A DNA stretch of 56,672 bases from a virus (taxonomy: Duplodnaviria > Caudoviricetes). The stretch spans positions 1 through 56,672 of the IMG/VR virus record IMGVR_UViG_3300027747_000649. One strand, 5' to 3'. Made by a program: the position numbers and the translations under genes. Every line of letters starts with the position of its first letter. Positions within the stretch are counted from its first letter, which is position 1. This document shows positions 6,000 through 47,048 of the stretch, in pieces. The notes beneath the pieces were generated by a model. The model was not told where the DNA came from. It did not search any database and was given only the letters and a program-made list of their open reading frames with translations.

Positions 6000-7514
6000 T
6001 TAATAGTAGACGGTTTTACGGCGGAAGCTTTGCAGCTCTTCGCGTTCATCGGATTCTAATCTCAGGAAGCCGCCTTGTCTAAACCTGAGTAACGCTTGTA
6101 CGGTGGTATCTACCAAATCGTCGTGGGCCGCATTCGGGAAAGCAGCCATCTGGTCGATCACTTCTCTGGCCCATCTTGTATCCGGTGCCCATACTTTCCC
6201 AGAGTTAAACATGTCCGACACGGAATTTAAACGCGCGATCTTATCGTTTGACTGCTGTCTTGTTCCTCGGGTCGGGGTGTATTCACTCACAGGAATTCCG
6301 GCTGCACGCATTTCAAATACCAACGGAGCTCCAGCCGCTTTGGCTTCAATAATACAGGCGTCTGGCTGCCAGTCCATATAGTGGGCTTTGGCTTTTTCTT
6401 TGAGCTCGGGGAACTCCATTCGCTTTTGGAAAGAATCCAGCAGGATAATATTTGCATTGTTTGAATCCTCATCCATGTGGAAAACACCCCACGTCGTACA
6501 AGCGGAAAAGTCGGAGCGTTCATTTTTTGTAAACGCTGTATCCCACGACTGGATAATAAATTCACACCTCGGCGGCTCTTCCTTCTCCCAAATCCTCCAC
6601 CACTCCCGCTTAACAATCGCTCCCTCTTCGCCAGTGGGCTGCTGCTGGTACTGAGCATTCCATTTAGCTGGAGATAGTTCTTCTTTCAAAGCTTCCAATA
6701 AATCCAATGGCCAGAACTCAGGCCACAAAGAAGCACCGCTCGGCATGATCGCAGGGAACTCAATGACATCCCACTCGTCAGGTCTCCCCCGCTCGATCGA
6801 GTCATTAATCACCCGGCCAATCAAATCCCGCTCGGACCATCTCGTCGCAATAATAATAATTGCCCCGTTAGGCTGAAGTCGCTGGCGGGGACCGGACGTG
6901 TACCACTCATACGACTTATCGTAAATACTGGGATCGTGCGCAGCGTTAGCCGCTTCTTGCTCCGTATGCGGATCGTCAATGATGACCAGATCAGCACCCC
7001 GGCCAGTCATAGTACCTCCCACACCGATCGCAAAGTACTCTCCGTCTTTGTTCGTACTCCATCGGCCGGCAGCCTTACTATCCTGTCTCAAAGTCACCCC
7101 GGGGAATACTTCCTCATACTGGTCACTCATTACCAAGTTACGCACCTTACGTCCAAACCCGACAGCAAGTTCTCCCGTGTTCGACGCTTGCATAACCTTC
7201 TTGCCCGGGTACTTCCCCAAAAACCAACTCGGAAACAAGTACGAGCCAAACTCACTCTTTGTATGCCGAGGGGGTAAAGAAATAGCCAGTCTTTTAATCT
7301 TCCCCGACGCAACATCCTCAAACTTCTTAGCCAGTACCGCATGATGTCGGCCATGAATAAACCCCGGCCACATCCGTTTAACGTAAGCCATGAAAGACGA
7401 CTGACAGTTCTCCCGCTCCACAGAGAGCTTGTACTCATTCATCTTCCGGCGAAGCGTCTCAAACTTCTCCTGAGGCAAAGACGCTATCTGCTCATCCGTT
7501 AAATCAAACATCAT
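6000..7514 (-). CDS. terL: Terminase large subunit
   Basis: Walker A variant LPPRHTKS, Walker B LVIIDDP, C-terminal RNase H-like nuclease (QSWDTAF...FPNAAHDDLVD). Confidence 0.95.
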   Translation of the reverse strand: MMFDLTDEQIASLPQEKFETLRRKMNEYKLSVERENCQSSFMAYVKRMWPGFIHGRHHAVLAKKFEDVASGKIKRLAISLPPRHTKSEFGSYLFPSWFLGKYPGKKVMQASNTGELAVGFGRKVRNLVMSDQYEEVFPGVTLRQDSKAAGRWSTNKDGEYFAIGVGGTMTGRGADLVIIDDPHTEQEAANAAHDPSIYDKSYEWYTSGPRQRLQPNGAIIIIATRWSERDLIGRVINDSIERGRPDEWDVIEFPAIMPSGASLWPEFWPLDLLEALKEELSPAKWNAQYQQQPTGEEGAIVKREWWRIWEKEEPPRCEFIIQSWDTAFTKNERSDFSACTTWGVFHMDEDSNNANIILLDSFQKRMEFPELKEKAKAHYMDWQPDACIIEAKAAGAPLVFEMRAAGIPVSEYTPTRGTRQQSNDKIARLNSVSDMFNSGKVWAPDTRWAREVIDQMAAFPNAAHDDLVDTTVQALLRFRQGGFLRLESDEREELQSFRRKTVYY

Positions 7515-18917: not shown

Positions 18918-19102
18918 TCGACGTATACGCAACCGAAGTGCAGGCCGTGGATGAGGATAACAACTTGCTGTTCACTTTAAAAATGGTGGACGAGTACTGC
19001 TGCACAATGGAACTCTCCAAGCCTTTGTTGTTGAGTAAAGGCAACTTGGAAGAGGTGCTGGGCGCCGTAAGACAAGCTGTGAAGATGCTGAGGCTGGAGT
19101 GA
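18914..19102 (+). CDS. Hypothetical protein
   Basis: 62 aa, coupled. Confidence 0.65.
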   Translation: MIDVYATEVQAVDEDNNLLFTLKMVDEYCCTMELSKPLLLSKGNLEEVLGAVRQAVKMLRLE

Positions 19103-19539
19103 CACGCCCCATTTACGAGACGCCGGACGACCTTCACAATGAGGCTGATGTCCTGCGTCTCATCTCTAACTTATGGCCTTCTAAATTCCACAAGCTGCCC
19201 ATTCGCTATCACCTTGATTACGCAGCCACCAAGGAAAACGGAGCAGTTGTAGCGTACTTGGAAATCAAAGTGCGTAAACACTCAATGGACCAGATCAACA
19301 GGTGGGGAGGCTACATGCTCAGCCTTGCCAAATTACAGACCGCTGAGTCACTGTGCCGGATCAGTAAAGCCGTCTTCGTCCTTGTCGTGAAGTGCCCCGA
19401 GGGTGTGTACTGGGCAAAGATCACTGACTTTACGCAATTCCCCGTAGTGATTGCCGGCCGGACAGATCGCGGGGACTCGCAGGACGTAGAGCCTTGCGTG
19501 ATGATTCCTACGAAACTGTTTATTCCGTTAGCCAGCTAA
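19099..19539 (+). CDS. PD-(D/E)XK-fold endonuclease-like protein
   Basis: E...YHLDY...YLEIKVR catalytic-like pattern. Confidence 0.6.
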   Translation: MTRPIYETPDDLHNEADVLRLISNLWPSKFHKLPIRYHLDYAATKENGAVVAYLEIKVRKHSMDQINRWGGYMLSLAKLQTAESLCRISKAVFVLVVKCPEGVYWAKITDFTQFPVVIAGRTDRGDSQDVEPCVMIPTKLFIPLAS

Positions 19540-19950
19540 AAAAATTTCAGCGCAGCAGCCCCCAAGGGTGATAGCCACGGCTGTTCACTCACTGCCCAGA
19601 GGGCACACACAGCGCACTCCTAGCAAACCCATAAGGTAGCGATTCGTCGATAGGGCGTTTGTCTTCACCGCTTGCCGCCCAATCTTCCCCAGTCCCTCGC
19701 TAACAGGCTGGACGGCAGTTCATCTGGGGGTGTACCAGTGCCGGTGTTTACTTCCTCGCGGCCCATGCAGGCCCAGTGCTAACGTGAGGAGAACGGCTAC
19801 TGTAGGGGTGGGGGTGGATACCCATAAACGAAAAGGCCGCTTACAACTGCGTCCGGTAGGAACCTTACCTAATAAATCCACGACTCATCATTAGGTAAAG
19901 CGGAACGCATGTGTAAACGGCCTAACTCTCGTCGCTTCCTACGGCAACGG
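19540..19950 (-). ncRNA. Candidate structured non-coding RNA (~400 nt)
   Basis: No ORF of 60 aa or more; own promoter; long stems (19834-19923, 19698-19784) and a GUAGGAA/UUCCUAC loop complement. Confidence 0.55.
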
Positions 19951-19954
19951 TTCC

Positions 19955-19985
19955 ATTATAACCATACGGAATCGTTGCGTGTCAA
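19955..19985 (-). promoter_or_regulatory. Consensus-hexamer sigma70 promoter driving the candidate ncRNA
   Basis: TTGACA-19 nt-TATAAT (spacer longer than optimal). Confidence 0.6.
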
Positions 19986-19994
19986 GAAGTATTT

Positions 19995-20069
19995 TGGTTG
20001 CGGAGGCTGGATTCGCACCAGCGGTCTCTTGGTTATGAGCCAAGCGGATTCCTACTTTCCCACCCCGCG
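19995..20069 (-). tRNA. tRNA-Met(CAT), initiator-like
   Basis: CGCGGGG acceptor with C1:A72 mismatch, anticodon arm CTTGG-CTCATAA-CCAAG, T arm GCTGG-TGCGAAT-CCAGC, encoded CCA; 75 nt. Confidence 0.9.
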
Positions 20070-20075
20070 ATAAAA

Positions 20076-20354
20076 GTTGTTGGCAACCGAGAATCCCCAG
20101 TCCGACACGACCCTAATAGCTATCGCCATCTGTCTTTGCTTAACCAACACGGCTGGGGACTAATCATGGATGAACCCATATAGTCGTCAATCCCCATGCG
20201 TGTTAGTTGTTGGTGGCTCACATCAAGCAGTGTTTTTAAAACCAACTAACCGCAACGGCGCTAACCCGTTACACCACCAACACGGCTGAACCCGCTTGCA
20301 TCACCGCGCCCAAGCAAAACTTAGGGACTCCGCAAAAAGGCTCATGCGTCTTGG
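20076..20354 (-). ncRNA. Two-unit array of structured RNA cassettes with constant stems and variable inserts
   Basis: + strand repeats: CCAACACGGCTG at 20144 and 20277, GTTGTTGG at 20076 and 20206, CATGCGT at 20195 and 20343. Confidence 0.6.
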
Positions 20355-20356
20355 TA

Positions 20357-20389
20357 GAAAAAACTCCCACGTCTGAGGTGGGAGTAAAA
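20357..20389 (-). terminator. Rho-independent terminator
   Basis: ACTCCCAC-7 nt-GTGGGAGT stem followed by a T-run on the minus strand. Confidence 0.6.
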
Positions 20390-20432
20390 CTCAACCGGAG
20401 TACCATGAAACAACCGAAGTTGCAGGGCAATC

Positions 20433-20717
20433 TTACACGCAAGATTTTAACAAAGCAAGCGCATCATCCGGCCCTAACACTATGTGCAAGTTGTTTCCGG
20501 GCCACGAGTCGTGAAACTTTTTTTCGGCCGGCGACAGCTCTCGCGCAGAGGGCGGCTTCTTCCCGTCTTTCACTTCCAGCAAGAGAGTGTTGCCTCTGTA
20601 CCACACCAGTAAATCAAATGTTCCGCCGTCGTTGATCTTCTTGACGAATGCACCGCACGCCTCAAGGGCGCTCACGATCTGCGTTTCGTTGGCATCTCTG
20701 CGTGCTGCAAGTCTCAT
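20433..20717 (-). CDS. VRR-NUC/Holliday-junction-resolvase-like nuclease
   Basis: RRDANE...FDLLV...LLEVKDG...LSPAEKKFH. Confidence 0.8.
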   Translation of the reverse strand: MRLAARRDANETQIVSALEACGAFVKKINDGGTFDLLVWYRGNTLLLEVKDGKKPPSARELSPAEKKFHDSWPGNNLHIVLGPDDALALLKSCV

Positions 20718-20823: not shown

Positions 20824-21084
20824 ATGAAGAAAGAAAATGTTAAGTCTTCTGAAGTTCAGCATGAGCCAGAAGTTTTGGAAAGGTCAAAGGTTCTTGCCGC
20901 TCATTTGGCTGAGCTGCTCTACGCCCAAGAAGAAACCACTCAGGAAAAGATCGTTGCTGCTGGAATTGTTTTTTCATCAATGGCTGCTATGCACGGGGTG
21001 CCGCTACCTCACGCAATTAATTTATTGGTTGGCTGCTACGGGCTGGCTGATAATTTCTTTGAAACAGCGGGGCCAATGCAATGA
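20824..21084 (+). CDS. Hypothetical protein
   Basis: 86 aa, AGGAG RBS. Confidence 0.65.
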   Translation: MKKENVKSSEVQHEPEVLERSKVLAAHLAELLYAQEETTQEKIVAAGIVFSSMAAMHGVPLPHAINLLVGCYGLADNFFETAGPMQ

Positions 21085-21950
21085 AGTTGACCAACAACCT
21101 CGGCCTGCCTGACACCTTTGTCAACGCAATCTCCCGGCCCACCTACACCAAGGGTGACGCACAGATCAGCGCGACAGAGATACTCAACAGCCCGCGTATC
21201 GTGCAGCTCAAGCGAAAGCATTGGGACGATCTTGAAGAAGACGCAGCCGATATGGTCTGGTCGCTCTTTGGCTCGGCCGTCCACGAAGTCTTGCAACACG
21301 GCAAGGACGACCACCACATCGTGGAGGAGCGCATCCACACCGAGTATCTGGGCTGGAAGATCAGTGGTGCAATCGACCTGCAAGAAGTTTATGAAGACGG
21401 CGTTGTCATCAGCGACTACAAGGTCACCAGCGCATGGGCCGTGATGAACGAAAAGGCTGATTGGCACAACCAGTTAAACCTGTACGGCTGGCTTGTCGAG
21501 CGTGTCAAAAAGCAAAAGGTTAAATCTTTGCAGATCATCGCCATCGTTCGAGACTGGTCACGCCGCGATGCGGCCACACGCGAGGGCTATCCCAAAGCGC
21601 CAGTGACTGTGATCGAGCTGCCATTGTGGTCATACGCTGACCGTGAAACGTATATCGCTAAACGTTTAACGCTGCACAACGATGCGTTCTTTGCCGTACA
21701 CACAGGGCACGGCATGCCTGAGTGCTCAGCCGAAGAGATGTGGGAGAAGCCCACCATGTACGCAGTGATGAAGGAAGGCGGCAAGCGCGCCAAGAGCGTT
21801 CACATTAACAAGGCAGAGGCTGAAGTGGCCATGCCTTCAACAGGGTACTTTATCGAGGTACGTGAGGGTGACAGGACTCGTTGCTCTGGCTTTTGTCAGG
21901 TCAACAAGCAATGTGACCAATATCAAAAATATCTTTTAACCAAGGAGTAA
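21081..21950 (+). CDS. PD-(D/E)XK (RecB/Cas4-like) exonuclease
   Basis: ISAT...GSAVHEVL, ISGAIDL, ISDYKVT, QLNLY, C-terminal RC..FC....C; adjacent to ERF and SSB. Confidence 0.85.
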   Translation: MKLTNNLGLPDTFVNAISRPTYTKGDAQISATEILNSPRIVQLKRKHWDDLEEDAADMVWSLFGSAVHEVLQHGKDDHHIVEERIHTEYLGWKISGAIDLQEVYEDGVVISDYKVTSAWAVMNEKADWHNQLNLYGWLVERVKKQKVKSLQIIAIVRDWSRRDAATREGYPKAPVTVIELPLWSYADRETYIAKRLTLHNDAFFAVHTGHGMPECSAEEMWEKPTMYAVMKEGGKRAKSVHINKAEAEVAMPSTGYFIEVREGDRTRCSGFCQVNKQCDQYQKYLLTKE

Positions 21951-22188: not shown

Positions 22189-22386
22189 ATGCGGTTTAAA
22201 GAACACGTTACCAACTTTGACATTCAGCCCATCAGCAACAGTTTGATGCATGGTCCAATTACAGAAGAGATGATTGACTTCATCCTTCAACGTAACGACG
22301 AAAAGCGTGAGGCTTCGATTGCTTACCTCGGTGAGAAGTGGTTGCTGCATCCCAATAACAAAACACAACGCAAGGAAATTCAATGA
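22189..22386 (+). CDS. Hypothetical protein
   Basis: 65 aa, YLGEKWLLHP. Confidence 0.65.
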   Translation: MRFKEHVTNFDIQPISNSLMHGPITEEMIDFILQRNDEKREASIAYLGEKWLLHPNNKTQRKEIQ

Positions 22387-23069
22387 CCGTTCACAAGAAA
22401 CTGATGCAAGCTCGCGTCGAACTTCAAGGCATTCAGCTCAAGAAGTCTGGCCACAACAAGTTTGCAGGCTATAACTACTTTGAGCTGGGCGACTTCTTGC
22501 CCACTATCCAAATCATCTTTAACAGGATTGGCTTGTGCGGGGTAGTGTCTTACACCGCAGAGATGGCAACCCTGACAGTCGTGGACACCGAAGATGGCAC
22601 GATCCTGCTCATTACTAGCCCGATGGCCGAAGCAAGCCTGAAGGGGGTTCACCCTATTCAGAATCTGGGTGCCGTGGAAACCTACCAACGCCGCTACCTT
22701 TGGATGACCGCCCTTGAGATCGTAGAGCACGACGTGCTTGATTCCCAGACTCATGAGCCAGCCAAAGCAGCGCCAAAGTTGGTTTCTTTACCCGCCAAGG
22801 CACCGGTAGCCCCAAAGCAGATCGAGGGCAAGGAAGGCCCGTGGTATCTCAAAGTGACTACAGATCCAGAGGGAAACTTTGATGACTGGACTAATCTTGT
22901 GCAAGACGTTACGCAGATTGCCTTGGATCATGCCGAAAGCGAATCTGACGTAATGGCCATCTTCCGCAATAACAAGAACATATTTGACCAAGTCAAACAA
23001 AGCGCATCAGCTTACGAATCAATCTTGGCCATGTTTACCGTAGCTAAAAATCAATTTAAAAAGGACTAA
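22383..23069 (+). CDS. erf: ERF-family single-strand annealing protein
   Basis: KKSGHNKFAGYNYFEL...QNLGAVETYQRRY signature. Confidence 0.88.
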   Translation: MTVHKKLMQARVELQGIQLKKSGHNKFAGYNYFELGDFLPTIQIIFNRIGLCGVVSYTAEMATLTVVDTEDGTILLITSPMAEASLKGVHPIQNLGAVETYQRRYLWMTALEIVEHDVLDSQTHEPAKAAPKLVSLPAKAPVAPKQIEGKEGPWYLKVTTDPEGNFDDWTNLVQDVTQIALDHAESESDVMAIFRNNKNIFDQVKQSASAYESILAMFTVAKNQFKKD

Positions 23070-24653: not shown

Positions 24654-24689
24654 GCTGCCCTTATTTATTTAAGGGCAGCTTTTTACTTT
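24654..24689. terminator. Palindrome/terminator between convergent arms (copy 3 of the CCCTTA palindrome)
   Basis: GCTGCCCTTA-TTTATT-TAAGGGCAGC followed by TTTTT. Confidence 0.65.
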
Positions 24690-27600
24690 CACTTGTTTTT
24701 CCGCTTGCTTTCCAATTTTTCAATCTGTTCATTTAAGATCAGCATTTGATTGGTAATGAGCTTTTCCGTGCCTTGAACAACTTCTTTTGGAGCATTGTTT
24801 TCAACTTGAGTGTGGCGCAACTTGCGTAATTTTTGCACATTGCGCTCCACCTGATCGGCCATTTTATAAAGCGCGGCTTCTGGGTTCTCCGCTAAAAACT
24901 TTGCCACGTTTTCTTGGCGCTTGGACATACCCTTGATGGTGTTTTCGTACTCATTCATCTTCTTCAAATTATCGTAGAAGTGATTGGCCACAGATGAACT
25001 GCCTTTTGTATCGCCGTAAAACCTGCCGACTAAAGGAATCTTGTGGGGCGGCAGCTCTTCACCAGTCACGACAGAGCGCAAGACCTGCTCAGCCTTCATC
25101 ACCTCTCGGCCGAGGCCACCAGTAGCTTGACCAACCAAGTAATCAATCTGGTCTGGTGTAGGGCTGACTACTCCGGGCACATCTGCGCTGCCGCCTGAGA
25201 CATAGTTCAAAAACTCCGAGAACTTTTTACCAAAGACGGATGCGGACTCTTTGGCGCGCATATAACCGGGCGTTGGGTCCAAGCTATTGAAGTCTTTCTT
25301 GGCAATCGGTTTGCCCGTCCAGTCTTTGTTTTCAATAATCGCAGCCAGCCAATCCAGCGGTGTTGGCGTTACCGTCTGCATGGACCAACCGGCATTTCCG
25401 ATCGGGTTGAAGGCGTCCGCAAACAAGCTCAGCAGGTGTTCTGTGCGCTTGCCTGCATCTATTTTTCGCCCATCCTTTGCAGCAAGAACGCCCTCTGTAA
25501 TGATGCGAGCGGCCGATGGAATGACGTTGTAGCCCAAAGGCATAGGGAAAGCCAAATACTTTCCGCTCGGCAGCGGAATGATGAAGCTCTTGTCCTTCAC
25601 AAAGTCTGGTGGATCGTCATCGCCAAAGCCGGCCATTGACAGGCCCACCGCTTGGATGACGCCAGCCAACATGCCGCCGCCAACAATCAACTTGCCCGCT
25701 GGGCCGGCAATAGTTTGTCCCAAGCGCGTCGTACCTTGCACGGCGGAATTAAAAAACGCATACAGCGCGTTGGCGTGCGTTGCAATTTGGCCTTTGCGGT
25801 TAAAGTTTACCGTCAAATTCTTAGCAAGACTGGCTGCCTTTTCTTTGCTTAATTTGTTATCCAAGCCTGTTTTATAGGCGGCCAAACGAACGGCATTTTC
25901 CATTGTCTCGTTGTAGTCGCTAAGCCAATTTAAAACGGCATCCTTGGCATCACTGGCTTTGCCTTGAGACATCTTTTTAAGCTCGCGCTCAAGAGCTTGG
26001 CCACGCTCCTCGGCACGACTAAACTGGTCGCGGAAGCCTGTCTGCCCCCCTTGCTGCTGGAACTCTTCCCACAGCTTTGACCATTGACCCGTGGACACCT
26101 TGCCTTGATGATCGGCGCGAAGCTGAGCGTAGATGCCTCGCACTGCGGGCATAACTTGCTTCAGCACTTCGGCTTGCTTGCCTGCCAGCTCAGTGGTGGT
26201 GAGCTGTAGTACCGCGCCCTCGGTGTCGCGCAAGAAGTTGTAAACACCAAACACAGGGTTGTACTGCGTGTTGATGCTGGCAAAGAAACGAGTTACCTTT
26301 GCCGAGTTGCTCAAAATAAAACCAAGTTGGTCGGCGTCAAGGTTCTTCAAAGCCGTAACCATTCGGTCAGCCCGCTCATTGTTTTGATTGAAGAACACAA
26401 AACGGTCTTTGCCATTAACCCGAACGGACATAACGTTGTCGGCCCCGCGCAGCACAGGATTGACGCGCTCTGTCACTAAGCCCGTCTTGGGGTCAACTAC
26501 TTTCTGGGTTGGCTCTTTCATCAGGTTCTGTGCGTCCTGCATGGTCAACCCCATATTGACCAACTCATTGATCGTGGCCTGCATGTCTTTCTTGCTGTCT
26601 GGATTGACTGCCATCCAGAACTTGGGATTTGGGCTCTTCAAGGCCAAGCCGTACAAGGCTGTGGCTACACGGTTCTTTTCCGCACGAACAATAGTGCGCT
26701 CGCGCTGCATGGCGATGTTGGCCAAGATGTCAACAACCTTGCGAGTCGAGCCAATAGACCGCTTGGAAGATGATCCTCGCACGCTGAAGCCCTGACCAAC
26801 TGACTGGCCCTGTTGCGAGCTGTAGTCAACATCGTCGCGGTTCAGGGGCACGTAATCGCCGTAAGTTTTATCCCATGTATCAATGGTGTCTTGGCTTTCC
26901 AATCCGCTGTCAACTAGCATCTGTCGCGTGTTGCCGGTGATGATCTTCACCATTCGATCGGCTTGATCGAGCTTGGCTTTTTGAGTGGCAGAAAGGCCGG
27001 CCAAGTATGTGCGCGCATCTGCGGTATCAATGCCAGAGCCGCCGTCAGGCAGGGTTGGATTGACCTTGGCCACCTGAATGTTTCGCTCTTCAGCGTGCTT
27101 GTTGTGTAGGTACTCTTCCAGCTCGGGAATGGTCACGCCCAAGCGATCCATCTCCTTCAGTAGCGGACGGAGCTCGTTCACCAAAAAGTCTTTGGTCTGC
27201 TTGGCTGCACGCCCGTGGAACAACTCTTCCATCAAGTACGGGTTCCAATTGTCATCAATTTCGCCAACAGACTTTGTGATCTCGTCAATCACGCGCTTGG
27301 TATCAATGTGCCGGTTTTGCAAGTTGTAAATAAACTTGTCATTACTCGTCATCTCTGGAGCAGTCCAGTTGACAAGCGGCTTTTGGTTGAAGATGGTCTT
27401 GCCTACAGATGCATAAGTGCTGGACTCACTAAGCATCTCTTTGCTTTGGAACTTGCCGTCACCTTTGCTCAGACTGTCCAATGCGTTGATAAGCTTACCT
27501 TGTGAGCCCATGCCCACCATAGACAAAATCTTTTGACCCAACTCTTTCAGCCAATTCTTAAGGCGCGCCAATACACCACCGCGCACCGCATCAAAACGAC

Positions 27601-30600
27601 CTTGCATGATGTCTGTGCCGTTAACAGCCCAGAACTCGGACGGGTTGACGTATTGATAAAAGGAAGAAGGAACTTGGCCGTCTTTAACCATTTGCACGGC
27701 TTTTTCAAAATCAACCTCGCGCCCTTCTCCATGCCAGTGATACATGCCTAGCAATTTAAAAAACTCTTGCTGAGCTTTGTTTTCAATCTTTTGCTTTGCC
27801 TTGCTGAACTCTTTGGTCCATGCTTTGCGTATAGCGTTCTGCATGTCTGGCGGCATCATGCGTTCAAGGTGATGCAAGATTTCATGAACAGTTGTTGTGT
27901 CCTTGCCGGACTTCTTCATGAGCACCATCAAGCGGTTAACATCAAAGTACTGGCCTGATACGCCATCTTCTTTTGGTGCGCGAATGGAGATGCCTAAATC
28001 CTCTACCAGTTGCGGGTTTCTTTGAATGAACCATTCCGCAAAGTCAACAGCCTCGTCCGACAAATCGCCGCGACGCTTGGCCTCCAGTAGACGTTGGCGA
28101 ATAAAGTCGGCACCTCGTGTGCGCGGAGCACGTTGAGCGTACATACGAGCTTTTGCAGCATCATCCAAAGCGGTATCTACGCCGTCGATGAATGCCTCAT
28201 CCGTTATCTTGCCGCCTTCTCGGTCGCGGTTCAGCTTATCCAGTTTTCGCTTAAGGGAGGGGTTGCGTTTTTTCTCTTCATCAACCACGGGACCGGCGCT
28301 AATCTCCCTTGCGTTTACTCTAATACCTCGATCTTCGAGGCCCTCAGCTCCGCTGATGCCAGTGCGTTCTGCGCCAACATTGGGTTGAACTGCTGTACCT
28401 TTTTCAGTTCTTGAGGGTTGAATTTTGATGCCAACAGTGCCTCTCTCTGTTGTGCCTGCTGCTCTTGCTTTTTGCGATCCATCTTGAATCCTTTCGATGA
28501 TGGCTTGAATTTGGGAGTATGCCTCTGGAGCGTTCTTTTGTAAATCCACGGGCGATGTAAAGTAGCGGGCGAATGCCTCAGCAAATGACTCCATCTCGTA
28601 ATCAACAGAGCCCTTGTACTTTGCCGCATAAGGATAATAAAAGGGATGATTAAATTTATTATCGCTTCCGTTATACCAATTTTTTAATTCTGTTTCAGCT
28701 TTTGACCAGTTGATGCTGTAAGAAATTGTGTTGCCTTTAAAATCAACAGAATGACCAAGCTCATGAACAAGTGTGTGTAATTTTTCTGCCGGAGATTGAT
28801 TTTTCCATTGTGATCCAGTCATGAGCCAGCCTTGCTCTGACATGACTCCTCCTGCTTTCATTCTGGTAGAGCCGGCACCCTTTACATTGCCAAGCACGGC
28901 AGCAGGCAAACCCAAATCAAGCGCATCAGAAGCCAGTTGGAGAATTTCTTTAATCTGCAAATTAGTAAGGGGGGCCGGCCTTATCATTTGAGTTTTTTTA
29001 ACGCCAACCGCTCTAAACGGAGGAATTGGAGTTTTTAATTGTTTTTCCAATTGCTCTAATGCTTCCTTGCGCTCTTGTTCTGGACTTATTGCAACAACCT
29101 CAGGCTCTAATGCTGGCTGGTCAAACAAACTTCCAGTAGTATCCTGACGCCCTTCTTCTTGTGTTAATTTAAACTGATCGGCTCCGGCCTCAGATTCTTT
29201 GCGTATCTGCTCTTGCTCATCAAGTTTTTCAGCGTTTGCTTTGCGCTCCTCTTGATCGGCAACATCTTGCTCGGTTGGACTTTCTAAGTTAATTGGTTGC
29301 GCCTTGGGCACGGGTGTGCCACGAGCAGTGCGAATCTCGGCAATCAAGTCGGGGTTGGTTGACCAGTTATCCCAAGATGCTTTGAGCTGCCGCAGCTCAT
29401 CAATACGGCGCTTAACAGCCTCTGGGTCACGAATATCAATGCCCTCGGCCTTAGCGAGTGCTGGATTTTTGGCTGCACCAGTAATGGCAGACAAGCGAGT
29501 TTGCATTTCTCGTTGTTTGGCGGCCGCTATTTTAGCCATTTCTTCCGCCTCTTTCATGGCGGACTCGTCAAACCCAAACATATCTGTGGTGGTGTCTGAT
29601 TCTTGCGCAAGAGCCTTAACGGCTTGCATTAAATTAACCGCAGCAACAGCAGACTTTCCTTCTTGAATTGCTTTAATGCCAACACTTTGCAATCTGGAGT
29701 CGTTGGGTGCATTTAAAGAAATTAAGTAGGCCGCTTCATCCCCGACTTTGTCGGAACGGACACCGGCAATGAGTTCATCACTGCCTTGATTTGAGATGGT
29801 GAAAGCCCGCTTGCCCGTCGATCTCGCCAATAATCCGCGTGATTCTGCCGTGTCTTGGTCGAGGCCGGTGCCTTTGAAGTAGTTGACATAATCTTTTACC
29901 TTTCCTTGTCCATCACGAATATTTAACTCAGCATCTAAAACGGCAGCCATATCTTTTGTAAAGCCAGCGTCTTCATCATGAATTTGAGCTGGAATAGTCT
30001 TTTCGCCGCTGCGTTTTGCAAGATCAAAGCGATGACGACCGGAAATAATTTCCATGCGACCATCGCTTCTACGCCAAACTTGGATTGGAGCAACTCCAGT
30101 TCTTTCAAACTTACCGCCCAAAGGTTCAACAACGCCTTCTTTATTTGCGTCAGTTTTAAATTGAGGAACATCTTCAGATAATTGAAGCGTGTCAATAGGC
30201 ACTTCAACAGTTCTGCGACCCGGAAACTCTGTTTGTTTGGCCTCTTCTGCTGCAGCAGGCTGCTCCACTTCTACCGCGACAGGCTCGACAATCGCTGCTT
30301 CTGTTTTTGGAGTAACAGGGATGTTTTCTTGTGGAGCTGCCGCCTCCAGCTCTTGCTTCAAATCTACTTCAGCGGGCTGCGCCACCTCTCCGGCAACAAG
30401 CCCTGCAGGCGGATTTTCTTCTTGTGGAGCAACAAAAACATTTTCTTTTGGAGTTGCCGCTTCCATTTCCTGCTCAAGATCAAGCACGCGCTGCTGCTCC
30501 TCTGCGCGTTGCTGGGAAAGAGCATTTGGCTGGGGCGGTGTTGCCCGCTCTAAATTTGGCTCACTGACGGCAGTCTCAAGATTATCTGGCTCAAACGTTG

Positions 30601-31696
30601 GCTCAGTTCGTTCGGTTGTTGGAGCAACTGGAGGAGCGGGCTTTTGCTCTGTAGATGGCTCTTTTTCTTGCCGCTGTCTGCCAAGAACTTGACCGGCTCC
30701 AGTGCCTGCAACTCCCATTGCCGCGCCGGTTAATAAGCCCATAGCTGATGCTTCTGCAACACCGTCCATGATTGGTTTGTTGGTGGCGTAATTCATCCAC
30801 ATTTGCTCTTGTGCAGACTGAGGAAGCTCCTCAAAAACGCCTTCAGATATACCGGATGCACCAGCCTTTTTGGCAAAATCAAGGACCGACTTTGATTTGC
30901 CTCGTGAGACGCCAGATGCCAACATGGTTTCCACGTCATCTAAACCAAGTTTATTGGCAAGTCGGCCACCCACAGCACCAAAAGCAGCAGTACCAACACC
31001 TGAGCCAACTGCTGAAAGTGCTTCTTTAGGGGTCAGCAAACCAGTTTTGGATTCTTCACGCAGTTGCTCGGCAGCAGAGCCAGCCCCAAGCGCGCCCTCG
31101 CCAAGAGCGCCAGCCAAAAAAGGAGCAATAGTTGGTGCGGCCTTTAGCAAACCACGAGAAATACCAGCACCGCCAAGCATTTGAGGCAATGATTCGGCAG
31201 CAGATGATGCAATTACACTGGGGTTTTGTAGTCCAGCAAGAATTGTCGGGCCAAAGCCCTCCGCTTCTTTTACTTTTCTGTTTGCCGCTTGCTGGGCTTC
31301 AGATAAGTACGTATCAAGAATGGCCTTTGCTTCTTTGGGTTTGTATCCTTGCTCCTCAAGAAACTTGCCAATACGGCCGGTAGTAGGAATATCAGCCAAG
31401 CCTACAAAAGCTTCAGGCAAACCGATTGCGCCCTTAAGCAAAGAGATGCCGGAATCTAAAACCGTCCCCAATACGGAACGCTCTGGATTTTCTTGTTTGC
31501 GTTTGGCCACGGCCGCCAAATAATCTTGCGCATTTATTGAGCCCTCGGGCCCGCCTGACTTAACTACCTGCCATTGATTGCCCACCAAGAAAGCTGAGTC
31601 ACCTGCTTCATTTTTGGCGGTATCTGTTGGTTTAACCCATTGGTTGTTGACAAGAAAGACTACCTCACCCGTTTCAGGATTAACTGCGCGTTCCAT
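24689..31696 (-). CDS. Large polyvalent virion protein (ParB-like domain, two zincin HExxH motifs, LPD38-like C-terminus)
   Basis: 2335 aa; PIQVWRR...IISGRHRF; VHELGH...ESFAE; VHEILHH...EFWA; C-terminal NKDWTGKPI...SPTPDQIDYL. Confidence 0.75.
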   Translation of the reverse strand: MERAVNPETGEVVFLVNNQWVKPTDTAKNEAGDSAFLVGNQWQVVKSGGPEGSINAQDYLAAVAKRKQENPERSVLGTVLDSGISLLKGAIGLPEAFVGLADIPTTGRIGKFLEEQGYKPKEAKAILDTYLSEAQQAANRKVKEAEGFGPTILAGLQNPSVIASSAAESLPQMLGGAGISRGLLKAAPTIAPFLAGALGEGALGAGSAAEQLREESKTGLLTPKEALSAVGSGVGTAAFGAVGGRLANKLGLDDVETMLASGVSRGKSKSVLDFAKKAGASGISEGVFEELPQSAQEQMWMNYATNKPIMDGVAEASAMGLLTGAAMGVAGTGAGQVLGRQRQEKEPSTEQKPAPPVAPTTERTEPTFEPDNLETAVSEPNLERATPPQPNALSQQRAEEQQRVLDLEQEMEAATPKENVFVAPQEENPPAGLVAGEVAQPAEVDLKQELEAAAPQENIPVTPKTEAAIVEPVAVEVEQPAAAEEAKQTEFPGRRTVEVPIDTLQLSEDVPQFKTDANKEGVVEPLGGKFERTGVAPIQVWRRSDGRMEIISGRHRFDLAKRSGEKTIPAQIHDEDAGFTKDMAAVLDAELNIRDGQGKVKDYVNYFKGTGLDQDTAESRGLLARSTGKRAFTISNQGSDELIAGVRSDKVGDEAAYLISLNAPNDSRLQSVGIKAIQEGKSAVAAVNLMQAVKALAQESDTTTDMFGFDESAMKEAEEMAKIAAAKQREMQTRLSAITGAAKNPALAKAEGIDIRDPEAVKRRIDELRQLKASWDNWSTNPDLIAEIRTARGTPVPKAQPINLESPTEQDVADQEERKANAEKLDEQEQIRKESEAGADQFKLTQEEGRQDTTGSLFDQPALEPEVVAISPEQERKEALEQLEKQLKTPIPPFRAVGVKKTQMIRPAPLTNLQIKEILQLASDALDLGLPAAVLGNVKGAGSTRMKAGGVMSEQGWLMTGSQWKNQSPAEKLHTLVHELGHSVDFKGNTISYSINWSKAETELKNWYNGSDNKFNHPFYYPYAAKYKGSVDYEMESFAEAFARYFTSPVDLQKNAPEAYSQIQAIIERIQDGSQKARAAGTTERGTVGIKIQPSRTEKGTAVQPNVGAERTGISGAEGLEDRGIRVNAREISAGPVVDEEKKRNPSLKRKLDKLNRDREGGKITDEAFIDGVDTALDDAAKARMYAQRAPRTRGADFIRQRLLEAKRRGDLSDEAVDFAEWFIQRNPQLVEDLGISIRAPKEDGVSGQYFDVNRLMVLMKKSGKDTTTVHEILHHLERMMPPDMQNAIRKAWTKEFSKAKQKIENKAQQEFFKLLGMYHWHGEGREVDFEKAVQMVKDGQVPSSFYQYVNPSEFWAVNGTDIMQGRFDAVRGGVLARLKNWLKELGQKILSMVGMGSQGKLINALDSLSKGDGKFQSKEMLSESSTYASVGKTIFNQKPLVNWTAPEMTSNDKFIYNLQNRHIDTKRVIDEITKSVGEIDDNWNPYLMEELFHGRAAKQTKDFLVNELRPLLKEMDRLGVTIPELEEYLHNKHAEERNIQVAKVNPTLPDGGSGIDTADARTYLAGLSATQKAKLDQADRMVKIITGNTRQMLVDSGLESQDTIDTWDKTYGDYVPLNRDDVDYSSQQGQSVGQGFSVRGSSSKRSIGSTRKVVDILANIAMQRERTIVRAEKNRVATALYGLALKSPNPKFWMAVNPDSKKDMQATINELVNMGLTMQDAQNLMKEPTQKVVDPKTGLVTERVNPVLRGADNVMSVRVNGKDRFVFFNQNNERADRMVTALKNLDADQLGFILSNSAKVTRFFASINTQYNPVFGVYNFLRDTEGAVLQLTTTELAGKQAEVLKQVMPAVRGIYAQLRADHQGKVSTGQWSKLWEEFQQQGGQTGFRDQFSRAEERGQALERELKKMSQGKASDAKDAVLNWLSDYNETMENAVRLAAYKTGLDNKLSKEKAASLAKNLTVNFNRKGQIATHANALYAFFNSAVQGTTRLGQTIAGPAGKLIVGGGMLAGVIQAVGLSMAGFGDDDPPDFVKDKSFIIPLPSGKYLAFPMPLGYNVIPSAARIITEGVLAAKDGRKIDAGKRTEHLLSLFADAFNPIGNAGWSMQTVTPTPLDWLAAIIENKDWTGKPIAKKDFNSLDPTPGYMRAKESASVFGKKFSEFLNYVSGGSADVPGVVSPTPDQIDYLVGQATGGLGREVMKAEQVLRSVVTGEELPPHKIPLVGRFYGDTKGSSSVANHFYDNLKKMNEYENTIKGMSKRQENVAKFLAENPEAALYKMADQVERNVQKLRKLRHTQVENNAPKEVVQGTEKLITNQMLILNEQIEKLESKRKNK

Positions 31697-44396: not shown

Positions 44397-47048
44397 TTAA
44401 AAATTCGCAGCATCCAAACGTGTCTTGAGTGACTTGATAATTGCGTCTTGGGTTTGCAACTTTTTAAGCAAAATAACAGTCAAACGTTCGTATTGAAAAC
44501 CCTCAACCTCGCCATCATTGCCGCGAGTAATAAGTTCTTCAAAGCCAGCCTCTGCCGCTTCGTCAGCAATTAAGCCTAAATGATCTTTGGTTTGGTCGTC
44601 ATTTTCGCATTTAGACTTGTAGCGAACTGGGCGCAAAAGGTTGATGTCCATTTCTTCAAGATCACGTACATCTTGTTTATATTTTAAGGCGGAAGTTGAA
44701 CGCTGGAAAGCGCCATCGCTGCGTACGTTAATGTTTGATGCCGTTGCTGTTGTTGAATTATATGTACCAACCGAATAAATTGTAGAAGTTGTAGCCGTAA
44801 ACCAAGTGTTCCCTAGATTGTCTACATAAATCCGTGGAACTCCGTCCCCATCGGACAACACGATGTAGTTGCTTGCGGTGCGAATATCAAGGCCGCCTTG
44901 GTTGCCGGAGTAAGTTCCAAGAATGGTGTTTGCGCTACCTGTGGTCACAAGATTGCCAGCACCGTTCAAAAATCCAGCTTTGCCTGAGCCAACAAATGTG
45001 TTGCTTGAGCCGCTTGTCAATGAGAGTCCAGCACCCCAACCAATCGCAACGTTGGTGCTTCCAGTGACTGGGCCGACAGCCATTGCGGTGCTGCCAATTG
45101 CAATGTTTGTATTGCCCGAACTAATGCCACCACCAGCGGCGGCTCCCAACGCCGTATTGCCACTGCCAGTTGCCGAGTACAAGGAGGCATTGTAAAAACC
45201 CGGAACACTTGAACCAACGCCGATGTTTTGCGCCCCAGTTGCGCTATAGCCCGCTTGGTAACCAATGTAAACACTGTTTCCAGAGGTTGTATTACTGTAC
45301 CCCGCCAACATACCTACCGCAGTATTAAAGTCTCCGGTTGTGTTGCTGCTTAACGCAGAATCACCAAATGCAGAATTTCTTGATCCTGTAGTGTTGCTTT
45401 GCAATGCACCAGCACCACTGGCTGTGTTGTAGCCCCCAGTAGTATTAACCCTAAGAGCATTAACGCCCAATGCTGTTAACTCCGTACCAGTGGTATTGCT
45501 ATACCCCGCCTGATAACCAACAGCAGTGTTGTTGGAGGCTGTGGTATTTTGGATTAAAGCACCCGCGCCAATTGCGGTATTGTTAGTGCCGGTAGTGTTG
45601 GCGTACAGAGCGCCGTTAAATACTCCGCTAGATGCTTGACCAATTGCGGTGTTGCCCGTGCCGGTTGTGTTTGATCCAAGCGCAGACCATCCAATCGCAA
45701 CGTTAACCGATCCAGTGGTGTTGGACAATAACGCTTGATAGCCCACCGCAGTTCCAGTACCAGTCGTATTGCTGTACATGCACTGATAGCCGACAGCAGT
45801 GTTGTTAGATGCCGTGGTGTTGGAAGTAAGGGCGCTTTCACCGATTGCTGTGTTAAATGCGCCAGTTGTATTGTAATACATAACGGCATAACCGACTGCC
45901 GTGTTGCTACTTGCTGTTGTGTTTGCTTGCAGGGTACGAGCGCCAATCCCCGTGTTATAGCTGCCAGTTGTGTTGGCCCCTAAAGTTCCATTAGCACCAC
46001 CCGCAAGAGCAGCACCAACGGCAAGATTAAAAGTTCCTGTTGTGTTGGCATACAAACTGGCAGTACCAACAGCCGTGTTGTTGGAGGCAGTGTTGCTATA
46101 CAAAGCACTTGCACCAAAAGCCGTTACGCCAATACCAGTGGTATTTGATATCAATGCACTTGCACCCACCGCAGTGTTTGTTACCACAGCGCCCCCGCCA
46201 CGGCCTACGGTAACGCCGTAAATTAAAGCATCACCGTTTACATCAAGTTTTTGGGCTGGTGAATTTGTACCAATACCTACGTTGCCGCCGGAAAGAATTG
46301 TCATCCGACCTGTTGCCGCACTGTACGCATCGTTAACGGTTTCAATCGACAAGTCACCGCTAGTTACATTACCAATACGCCATGTTTTTAAATTGGTTCC
46401 AGCATTACCGTTGTACAGTTGCAGATACGGCACGGTTCCAGATCCAGAAGCTGTTTTTGCGGCAATACCGCCGTTTGCAGTCAACGTGGCGTTTGCGAGT
46501 GAGCCTTGCCCGCCAACCGACAAAGTTGTACCGTCAAAAACCAAGTTGGCAGAATCAGTCTCCAGACCGCCTGTAGTGCTATACACTACACGGCCCGATG
46601 TTAAGCCAGCATTGGTGATTGAAGTAAACAAACCAGCGCCAGATGTGTTGCTGATCTTGATGAAATCAGAACCGTTCCAAGCGCAGACGGCAGCCTCACC
46701 CTTTGCAATGGTTACACCCGTGGTCGGGCCTGAAGCTCGAAGCACAATAGATTGAGTGCCTGAGCTTGCATTGATGACCGTGTAAATCTTTGACTGCGCC
46801 GGGGCCGTGATGTACCGGGTGGCCGTTCCGCCTGCAGACCATAGCAGAATAGCTTCCCGCGACGTATTGGCTGTGCCAGAAGTTGTGGTTAGCGTGACAT
46901 CAGCATCAGAGCTCAGCGTAGTTGTCCCTGCAATAGCGGAGTCCAAGAGCGAAGTGATGGAGTTGTTTACCACATCCCCCCAAGCGCCATTAAGTTCCCC
47001 TGTAACTGGCAGTGCCAATCCCAAGAGCGATGTATATGCTGTAGTCAT
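44397..47048 (-). CDS. Tail fibre with NTAVG beta-roll repeats and C-terminal S74-type intramolecular chaperone
   Basis: 883 aa; ~14-aa NTA[VI]G..AL..NTT repeats; TSALKYKQDV...LRPVRY...HLGLIADE. Confidence 0.85.
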   Translation of the reverse strand: MTTAYTSLLGLALPVTGELNGAWGDVVNNSITSLLDSAIAGTTTLSSDADVTLTTTSGTANTSREAILLWSAGGTATRYITAPAQSKIYTVINASSGTQSIVLRASGPTTGVTIAKGEAAVCAWNGSDFIKISNTSGAGLFTSITNAGLTSGRVVYSTTGGLETDSANLVFDGTTLSVGGQGSLANATLTANGGIAAKTASGSGTVPYLQLYNGNAGTNLKTWRIGNVTSGDLSIETVNDAYSAATGRMTILSGGNVGIGTNSPAQKLDVNGDALIYGVTVGRGGGAVVTNTAVGASALISNTTGIGVTAFGASALYSNTASNNTAVGTASLYANTTGTFNLAVGAALAGGANGTLGANTTGSYNTGIGARTLQANTTASSNTAVGYAVMYYNTTGAFNTAIGESALTSNTTASNNTAVGYQCMYSNTTGTGTAVGYQALLSNTTGSVNVAIGWSALGSNTTGTGNTAIGQASSGVFNGALYANTTGTNNTAIGAGALIQNTTASNNTAVGYQAGYSNTTGTELTALGVNALRVNTTGGYNTASGAGALQSNTTGSRNSAFGDSALSSNTTGDFNTAVGMLAGYSNTTSGNSVYIGYQAGYSATGAQNIGVGSSVPGFYNASLYSATGSGNTALGAAAGGGISSGNTNIAIGSTAMAVGPVTGSTNVAIGWGAGLSLTSGSSNTFVGSGKAGFLNGAGNLVTTGSANTILGTYSGNQGGLDIRTASNYIVLSDGDGVPRIYVDNLGNTWFTATTSTIYSVGTYNSTTATASNINVRSDGAFQRSTSALKYKQDVRDLEEMDINLLRPVRYKSKCENDDQTKDHLGLIADEAAEAGFEELITRGNDGEVEGFQYERLTVILLKKLQTQDAIIKSLKTRLDAANF

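Follow-up and report, generated by a model that had tools for sequence, protein, structure and literature searches.

In the IMG/VR virus record IMGVR_UViG_3300027747_000649, a stretch of 56,672 bases that was analysed at its full length and is called the window here, a unit built of constant stems and variable inserts occurs twice on the minus strand, directly upstream of a gene for tRNA-Met. Which kind of element is this, and what does the phage do with it? A preliminary description, made from the sequence, had proposed a cassette system that releases several small RNAs against host targets as antisense, guide or decoy molecules. The architectural part of that proposal, a repeat-insert array with constant stems and variable cargo, stands; the units belong to a large, phage-restricted family of RNA cassettes, apparently undescribed. 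The part that concerns antisense, guide or decoy action on the host is not supported.

The two units and the strand that folds

Three pairs of repeats place two copies of one unit within positions 20355-20076 of the minus strand, as had been noticed before. A repeat search recovers CAGCCGUGUUGGU in two exact copies (20288-20276 and 20155-20143, spacing 133 nt), ACCAAGACGCAUG and its 85% identical counterpart ACUAACACGCAUG (20355-20343 and 20207-20195, spacing 148 nt) and two exact copies of CCAACAACU (20213-20205 and 20083-20075, spacing 130 nt). With up to one mismatch, the repeated 13-mer is present three times in the window, against 0.12 expected, and none of 100 shuffles reaches three. The third copy, at 46070 on the plus strand and with one mismatch, is away from the array and chance-like. 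When the 56,672 bases are searched with a covariance model made from leaders of relatives, two units and no more come out, both on the minus strand.

Each unit consists of a leader and a cargo. The leader is a hairpin: its lower stem, (A/G)YYAAS-ACG / CGU-GUUGG-U, is separated by a 2x2 loop CA/GC from the upper stem UGGGGAUUG/CAGUCCCCA, in which one U-G pair is fixed, and a head that varies sits on top. The cargo, itself a structured RNA, has GUUGGNN/NNCCAAC as its closing stem, with AAC behind it. GUUGG belongs to leader and cargo alike. Leader 1 (20276-20355, minus strand; model match 20275-20355, 49.5 bits), also present in the minimum free energy fold, has the lower stem ACCAAG-ACG / CGU-GUUGGU with one G-G mismatch, the loop CA/GC and an upper stem of a variant type (UGAGCC.../...GGGUUCA). 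Cargo 1 (20209-20281, minus strand) is 73 nt long and closed by GUUGGUGG/CCACCAAC. The junction AAC-U (20205-20208, minus strand), within the direct repeat CCAACAACU (20213-20205), leads from cargo 1 to leader 2 (20143-20207, minus strand; model match 20142-20207, 60.6 bits), which folds with the lower stem ACUAAC-ACG / CGU-GUUGGU, the loop CA/GC and the consensus upper stem UGGGGAUUG / UAGUCCCCA. Cargo 2 (20079-20148, minus strand), of 70 nt, is closed by GUUGGU/GCCAAC, and its AAC tail occupies 20078-20076.

The outer and inner stems had been predicted to pair around the first insert of each unit. They pair in this way, and the same pairs covary across 122 relatives. In the 122 aligned leaders, the P1+P2 helix is 98% paired and shows changes on both sides at 6 of its 12 pairs. 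Cells changed on both sides number 75, against 16.9 in shuffled alignments (none of 500 as high) and 10-20 in controls with the strands slid against each other. Counted over 251 non-redundant units, the helix contains 2669 Watson-Crick, 306 G-U, 14 A-C and 23 other cells; 227 of the G-U cells come from the one fixed U-G pair, and the remainder is 79 G-U against 14 A-C. It is therefore this strand that folds; repeats kept alike only as double-stranded DNA would not be expected to show such an asymmetry. The leader model points the same way: its scores lie at 35-68 bits here and do not exceed 29.3 bits for the opposite strand. The helix of about 20 bp (a 9-bp lower stem, the 2x2 loop and a 9-bp upper stem) keeps its lengths in nearly all of the 251 units, and the sequence is near-invariant in the internal loop (C-C in 238, A-G in 242) and at the U-G pair of the upper stem (227). 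Open reading frames (ORFs) that overlap the units are short only, of 32-61 aa. Judged from its paired columns and from heads of very different length, the region appears to be conserved as structured nucleic acid.

The core strand has a second partner. UGUUGG had been seen to pair either upstream or downstream in mutually exclusive hairpins, and covariation bears out both sides. The core is other than GUUGG in 20 of the 251 units. Its upstream partner tracks the change, with CCAUC/GAUGG in three units, UCAAC or UUAAC/GUUGA in three and CUAAC/GUUAG in one; L199 and L214 show paired one-base losses of partner and core (CCAU/AUGG, CCAA/UUGG). The closing strand of the cargo tracks the core in at least six units, ending in ...CCAUC (L224, L249, L271), ...UAUCAAC (L062, L283) or ...CCUGAC (L222), and the downstream partner of GUUGG is nearly always complementary. 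A closing stem of at least seven uninterrupted Watson-Crick pairs within 200 nt is present in 123 of 243 units, compared with 7 in the reversed and 2 in the shuffled control; the cargo stem is thus not an artefact of the search, in which the median cargo measures 92 nt. Cargos range from 52 to 199 nt. The modal closing stem has 7 bp (72 of 155 units); in most of these 155 units an A follows it, and in 79 the full AAC. In the fold of minimum free energy (-110.4 kcal/mol, z -3.95), the RNA of the window's array has both leaders formed, including their lower stems, with the cargo stems open.

Family size and exchange of modules

Relatives were collected with two patterns, a strict one made of two leader anchors with a gap and one made of the upper stem only. 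The strict pattern is found in at least 120 IMG/VR stretches. Almost all of these carry the upper stem GGGGAUUG...CAGUCCCC, which the pattern does not specify, so they are relatives and not chance matches. The upper-stem pattern likewise gives at least 120 IMG/VR stretches, and the two patterns together at least 212 loci with units, at least 208 of them IMG/VR contigs other than the window. When one genome per species was searched with the strict pattern (185,579 prokaryote species), 67 matches were obtained, three of them with the upper stem; the other 64 lack it and were set aside as chance. The three genuine ones are all contigs of metagenome-assembled genomes, assigned to Burkholderiales, to Sterolibacterium and, for a contig of 2.3 kb, by binning to Flavobacterium. 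In GenBank phages the tRNA-Met part alone has matches, in eight records, and no annotation found there corresponds to the architecture of the units.

Most of the at least 212 loci contain a single unit (164, as compared with 44 loci with two, 2 with three and 2 with four), counts in which the strict pattern undercounts. Five phage genomes at least 92% complete each have one or two units, at a single place. A general punctuation element of messenger RNAs and a miniature inverted-repeat transposable element were both rejected on the ground of one locus per genome.

No known RNA family accounts for the region. With the 4227 models of Rfam 15, the tRNA at 19998-20069 is the only match in the whole window at the gathering score, and between 19500 and 20500 nothing credible falls on the units up to an E-value of 10. 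In two sets of related loci (17 + 18), the leader is without a match; the tRNA, abiF (at one locus) and two sub-threshold int-alpA matches are all that was returned. The int-alpA matches (RF02996; gathering score 35.8) lie a few hundred bases from arrays, at 2554-2627 of L108 (minus strand, 32.2 bits) and 2677-2753 of L054 (minus strand, 31.9 bits), and one adjoins a tRNA. By title and abstract, no paper with such an architecture was found in the literature; an unnamed earlier sighting in the motif catalogue of PMC5737381 is possible.

The four inserts of the window are unrelated to each other, as described before, but each of them has family members in other phages. Altogether, 148 cargos form 67 sequence clusters. 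The family of cargo 1 was aligned with 25 distinct members: the hairpin loop GGGUUAGCGCC is invariant, the stem of this hairpin covaries, with both partners altered at four pairs, in 12, 12, 6 and 8 sequences, and a further invariant segment, CUGCUUUAUGUGAGC, has the form CUGCUU(U/G)AUGUGAGC. For cargo 2, the loci provide two relatives, in L094 and L099. The heads also form recurring, internally covarying families, which reassort independently of the cargos. The head of leader 1 is 84-85% identical to those of L012 and L106, which carry other cargos, and the head of leader 2, GACGACUAUAUGGGUUCAUCCAUGAUUA, is 94% identical to that of L114, whose cargo is of the cargo-1 type. L096 has cargo 1 and the small RNA found downstream of the array (described below), without unit 2 and the tRNA. 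For each module of the window, the nearest relative lies in a different phage.

The same turnover is visible between co-occurring relatives in sequencing runs. A contig of the DNA run X2 joins 20073 to 20209 and represents a variant without exactly unit 2, and a contig of X3 departs from the window exactly at the core, at 20150, and looks like a relative with another cargo. Stems that covary while unit number and inserts turn over are what the preliminary description had expected of related phage genomes.

Some cargos resemble tRNAs. Rfam places tRNA matches on four cargos, and in each case the match begins exactly with the G of GUUGG (L081, L116, L106 and L108; 35-48 bits). None of the four is called by ARAGORN, and by eye the anticodon region is aberrant or expanded. 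The tRNA-like cargos (L081, L116/L060, L106/L098, L108/L053/L079) have normal acceptor, D and T arms with the anticodon arm enlarged or replaced; L081 has a stem of 7 bp with a loop of about 9-10 nt, and L108 has about 70 extra nt. Neither ARAGORN nor Rfam calls a tRNA in cargos 1 and 2 of the window, and most cargos are not tRNA-like beyond the closing stem.

The inserts are structured and conserved in families, not spacer-like. A search for antisense matches in the phage's own genome gave a longest match of 11 nt, at the level of the shuffles (11-15 nt), which leaves the proposed antisense, guide or decoy role without backing. The sole hint of a decoy comes from abiF. An abiF RNA motif (RF03085; gathering score 37) lies directly behind a cargo at 1269-1305 of L056 (plus strand, 55.2 bits) and at 73-109 of L029 (minus strand, 44.1 bits), and doubles there as the terminator of the array. 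It is an orphan: the four ORFs scanned in the 2.7 kb downstream in L056 have Pfam matches to terminase domains only, with no AbiF-type protein. According to PMC12373285, the AbiF toxin is neutralised when an RNA that carries two abiF motifs binds to it directly. The orphan motif may be a phage-borne antitoxin mimic. It occurs in 2 of 200 related contigs and not in the window, too few for a general cargo function, which was rejected. By analogy, the diversity of the cargos, the single accessory locus and the rapid turnover resemble counter-defence loci; a role of the cargos against the host or its defences is a guess.

Transcription, processing and rival explanations

The units follow the orientation of their neighbours. 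They share the strand of the gene for the large terminase subunit (TerL) in 31 of 31 cases, of that for the small subunit (TerS) in 24 of 24 and of a small HNH gene in 19 of 21, and only one of the at least 212 loci has units on both strands. Many arrays are located between a small nuclease gene and the terminase genes, and the array of the window lies in the early region. A role as packaging site was discarded: many arrays indeed separate the HNH gene from terS, but the terminase gene of the window (6000-7514) is 12 kb off. In 21 of 212 loci, a tRNA is encoded within 400 nt, nearly always tRNA-Met and on the same strand (20 unit-tRNA pairs). No constant partner protein was found among the neighbours at 124 loci; the commonest clusters, which comprise terminase subunits, the small HNH nuclease, a replication protein and a resolvase, are each present at 31 loci or fewer.

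Cargos without a leader begin 6-7 nt behind a -10-like box in L032, L007, L054, L213 and L266, which puts the 5' end of such RNAs on the G of GUUGG or beside it, and the arrays of L032 and L108 end in a terminator. Behind this terminator, at about 2290-2420 in L032 and on the minus strand in L108, a short, signal-peptide-like ORF (MKTLFTIAALL...) conserved in both was noticed by eye. Inspection of the sequence upstream of first leaders also revealed, in some loci, a small GC-rich hairpin with a GAAA-type loop (e.g., CCGG-AAAGA-CGG), located 5-6 nt upstream and abutting the 5' strand of the lower stem (L023, L032, L043, L106, L111, L121 and others), and in other loci a terminator-like hairpin with a U run at that place.

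Units or cargo 2 are covered by contigs from RNA libraries of three studies. The lake metatranscriptome X3 has contigs over 20150-20400 and 19674-19986, and none over the ORF of the upstream VRR-NUC nuclease; gaps in the RNA libraries (the tRNA, most of cargo 2 in X3 and this ORF) are not evidence of absence. Contigs of X23 and X24 match 20075-20161 without difference, with another head upstream and another leader downstream.

The array may thus be transcribed as a whole and processed by the host into discrete small RNAs, with the leader as a spacer for processing and folding control, a reading that we hold to be about evenly balanced between right and wrong. Each cargo would be a discrete structured RNA; the helix that closes it, GUUGGNN/NNCCAAC and modally 7 bp long, resembles an acceptor stem and has A-AC behind it. 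As the first module of an operon, the cargo would be transcribed directly, beginning on or beside the G of GUUGG; behind another module, it would have the constant leader hairpin in front. In the precursor, the leader would fold first and hold GUUGG, a host endonuclease would separate the modules, and the freed GUUGG would close the cargo stem. The mismatches of the lower stem, together with the near-perfect cargo stem, would fit such a handover of GUUGG from the leader to the 3' strand of the cargo. The constant segments could also act as homology handles for the exchange of heads and cargos between phages. Processing into discrete small RNAs is plausible, since cargos without a leader begin close behind a -10-like box, tRNA-like cargos begin at the G of GUUGG and RNA-library contigs cover the units.

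Two processing routes come into consideration, and the weights given to them are judgements, not measurements. Typical substrates of ribonuclease P (RNase P) have a 7-bp acceptor-like stem, the pair G+1:C+72, U-1 and an unpaired discriminator base. The unit sequences offer these features, with a modal stem of 7 bp, U-1 and an unpaired A, at putative cuts between CGU and GUUGG and between CCAAC and A. A tRNA-type maturation, in which RNase P would cut in front of GUUGG and RNase E with exonucleases would trim the AAC tail, is therefore proposed tentatively, also on account of the tRNA-like cargos and the leaderless starts at the same G. Cleavage by RNase III within the 20-bp leader is given somewhat less weight; it is considered because the leader is a constant, interrupted helix of about 20 bp, a feature of T7-type substrates, and is predicted to form in the precursor. 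The RNase III hairpins of T7 lie between early genes, spread along the messenger between protein genes. Like them, the leader is a conserved hairpin of about two helical turns with an internal loop, placed between functional units of one transcript; unlike them, leaders are confined to one locus per genome, bear structured heads that vary and extend into the stem of the RNA that follows. RNase III (PF14622) was found in none of five leader-bearing phage genomes, so the host enzyme would be needed.

Several observations weigh against a processed array. The tail of the cargo is AAC, not CCA, and no CCA is encoded; a canonical T arm stands next to the 3' strand in only 6 of 130 cargos. The lower stem is mismatched in about 40% of the 251 units (G-G in 60, U-U in 31 + 12). 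In the predicted fold of the precursor the cargo stems are open, which is awkward for RNase P. First units often lie directly behind a terminator-like hairpin with no promoter evident, and in L002, L102, L257 and L279 a leader alone stands, as judged by eye, before an apparent ribosome-binding site and start codon. The contigs of X23 and X24 span both the leader-cargo and the cargo-leader junctions, hence they derive from unprocessed molecules or from DNA. All sequencing runs were read as Logan contigs, in which starts, ends, strand and levels are unreadable and DNA in an RNA library is possible. Finally, a strict leader sequence with structured, family-conserved heads is not obviously needed by a pure spacer.

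In a rival explanation, the leader itself is the working RNA, a protein-binding scaffold that displays its head, for example to titrate or recruit a host or phage protein, the cargo stem and the processing being secondary. The near-invariance of the internal loop and upper stem in sequence, and not in pairing alone, fits a scaffold, as do the covarying head families that reassort independently of the cargos and the leaders without cargo before apparent ORFs. It is nevertheless improbable: no protein family consistently accompanies the leader (its commonest neighbour, at 31 of 124 loci, is the terminase), one or two copies per genome are few for a sponge, and the covariation of GUUGG with the 3' strand of the cargo ties the leader to what follows. 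The same competition for GUUGG, with two mutually exclusive helices both kept by covariation and a leader sometimes directly before a ribosome-binding site, could make a regulatory switch, operated by a ligand, temperature or a protein, that decides on folding of the cargo or on downstream expression. The elements downstream of the leader are, however, RNA families, ORFs and tRNA-like RNAs with no common regulated function, no conserved pocket-like junction is visible, and up to four copies stand in tandem; a switch is very unlikely. A new self-cleaving ribozyme that frees the cargo, by cutting between CGU and GUUGG or between CCAAC and A, would account for some 35 near-invariant nt around a conserved internal loop, with a variable peripheral hairpin, before each cargo, and phages do carry ribozymes next to tRNAs. 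It is very unlikely all the same, as Rfam gives no ribozyme match even at E-values up to 10, what is conserved amounts to a simple interrupted hairpin in which neither a pseudoknot nor a multi-helix core is apparent, and RNA-library contigs span the proposed cleavage sites.

The remaining explanation operates on DNA: the constant segments would serve for recombination as folded single strands, or would bound a small mobile cassette as its terminal inverted repeats, and the RNA features would be incidental. The order CCAAC...GTTGG...CCAAC resembles inverted core sites around a variable centre, changes in the upstream, core and downstream 5-mers go together, gain, loss and shuffling of cassettes occur, and G-T pairs are also tolerated in folded single-stranded DNA. 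The likeness extends to the attC arrays of integrons, where one strand folds with inverted cores around a centre of variable length and tandem cassettes are swappable. The attC consensus boxes R''/R' are RYYYAAC / GTTRRRY with extrahelical bases; the cores of the units, (R)YYAAC / GTTGG(Y), are similar to them but one base shorter, and the units have a conserved 2x2 mismatch. Unlike in integrons, the cassettes are RNA genes, and orientation and promoters point to a role at the level of RNA. The enzymes are also missing: a tyrosine recombinase (PF00589) was found in none of the five leader-bearing genomes at least 90% complete, with a control positive in 14 of 14 genomes, nor does any of the five have a Y1 transposase (PF01797), a search that likewise had a positive control. 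Ends of the IS200/IS605 type, or palindromes derived from them, were rejected for the latter reason and for the one locus with one or two units in each of the five genomes. With no dispersed copies, an orientation that follows local transcription even in the minus-strand island of the window, tRNA-like cargos in the same orientation, arrays bounded by promoters and terminators and units covered by RNA-library contigs, a DNA-level role is quite improbable.

Genomic setting and comparison with known systems

The window, about 90% complete, is the genome of a tailed phage with genes for the large terminase, portal, helicase, primase and structural proteins. Its largest ORF, of 2335 aa, is located on the minus strand at 24689-31696. 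The array sits in a minus-strand island within a plus-strand block of early and recombination genes, which includes an exonuclease gene (21081-21950) and an Erf gene (22383-23069). From 5' to 3', the island contains a gene for 94 aa, a terminator-like hairpin, the two units, the tRNA-Met and a promoter-like pair with a second small RNA. In relatives, intein-like insertions were seen in the large terminase and in a helicase (L011 2303-4549 and L115 10010-12361; Pfam Intein_splicing, 6e-7 and 2.7e-9).

The two nuclease genes reported to flank the array are both present. One, on the plus strand at 19099-19539, encodes a PDDEXK_14 nuclease according to Pfam (4.8e-32). The other is the 94-aa gene at 20433-20717 on the minus strand, the first of the island, recognized by its predicted fold as a VRR-NUC (PD-(D/E)XK) nuclease. 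Sequence searches of Pfam and the PDB gave no match for this protein, and PHROG gave PHROG 93 (2.4e-4). Residues D8, N10, D35, E48 and K50 are invariant among eight homologues. The structure model, with a predicted local distance difference test (pLDDT) score of 72, is matched by Foldseek to 4qbn_A, a stand-alone VRR-NUC domain (E 4.2e-4, template modelling score 0.57), followed by Holliday-junction resolvases. As far as the model can tell, the protein is probably a DNA junction nuclease of the recombination module, outside the RNA system. The idea of an RNA-processing enzyme was rejected on this fold and because the gene lies near arrays at only 9 of 124 loci (the window and homologues in eight others). 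The gene is closed by a terminator-like hairpin of 8 pairs and a T run (20357-20385, minus strand), a few bases upstream of leader 1; the hairpin has a weak Rfam match to a terminator-like small RNA only.

Directly downstream of the array follows the tRNA-Met (CAU) at 19995-20069 on the minus strand, called by ARAGORN and by Rfam (57.7 bits over 19998-20069). In the Rfam alignment, C1 is unpaired opposite A72 (non-canonical); CCA is encoded. The C1-A72 mismatch is a hallmark of bacterial initiator tRNA; the anticodon stem, on the other hand, has just two G-C pairs beside the loop. The island closes with the second conserved small RNA, of about 120 nt, at 19826-19985 on the minus strand, which has a sigma-70-like promoter pair of its own and an intrinsic terminator at its end. 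Read directly, the pair consists of TTGACA (19985-19980) and TATAAT (19960-19955) with a spacer of 19 nt; the promoter scan accepts spacers of 16-18 nt only, hence this pair is not listed by it. This RNA is found at 18 loci (L118, L096, L222, L191, L260, L238, L239, L210, L282, L264 and others), often 139-224 nt behind the last unit, and shares the consensus pieces GUUG(C/U)CGU..., CCGUU(U)AC(A/U)CAUGC and ...CAGU(A/U)GUAA(A)CGGCUUUUUU. Rfam gives no match for it, and it is covered by the second X3 contig mentioned above.

Small RNAs encoded beside phage tRNAs are a known kind of locus, in the form of a co-transcribed and processed array. The tRNA region of T4 holds the co-transcribed small stable RNAs species 1 and 2. 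As in such clusters, structured RNAs and tRNAs follow head to tail on one strand here, presumably in a common precursor cut by host tRNA-processing enzymes. Unlike in T4, a constant hairpin of 66-145 nt precedes each module, a constant GUUGG/CCAAC stem closes it, the modules reassort among at least 208 phage contigs, and most cargos are not tRNA-like. GOLLD and ROOL, according to PMC5737381, are structured noncoding RNAs that are often found in phages and next to tRNAs and are possibly co-transcribed with them. They are single large RNAs of fixed architecture represented in Rfam, unlike the small, modular units, and neither was matched by Rfam in the window or in the related loci scanned (17 + 18).

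CRISPR arrays, and the solitary repeat units of phages, likewise alternate a constant structured element with variable inserts and vary in unit number. Here, in contrast, the inserts are structured, family-conserved RNAs instead of unique spacers, and in place of identical short repeats there is a long, split hairpin whose head varies. The annotated neighbours that were examined include no cas gene, a statement based on annotation since no dedicated Cas search was made. The earlier view that the array is not CRISPR agrees with these features and with the covarying cargo families. The antitoxin arrays of type III systems (ToxI) are also tandem structured RNA units, with short, almost identical repeats beside the gene of an endoribonuclease toxin, but the present units differ from each other in head and cargo, have no adjacent toxin gene and are neighboured by DNA nucleases and recombination genes. 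New features are a two-state junction and an acceptor-like stem, both constant, two variable slots per unit (head and cargo), and the size and diversity of the family.

A wider interpretation is possible, which we put forward with reserve: freshwater phages may possess an RNA counterpart of a gene-cassette platform. With the constant two-state junction, they could exchange the members of a hypervariable set of structured RNAs, among them mimics of tRNAs and of antitoxins and many RNAs of unknown fold, express several together and set them free for takeover of the host or for counter-defence. The leader, on this view, would serve as a processing signal of a new kind, whose cleavage might follow an undescribed mechanism. 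If the reading given here holds, the units represent a large unannotated class of phage noncoding RNA, which many metagenomes contain (at least 208 viral contigs besides the window) and which can be searched for by its architecture; no known phage RNA locus approaches the diversity of its cargos. It would be a natural design for obtaining several structured RNAs from one transcript, and a tractable example of evolution keeping two helices in competition for a single strand. The cargos would form a catalogue of dozens of structured RNA families, including tRNA-like ones without a normal anticodon arm, whose targets could reveal phage-host interactions. Even on the modest reading, with the leader doing no more than separating small RNAs for processing, the family would add a new conserved processing element to those of phages.

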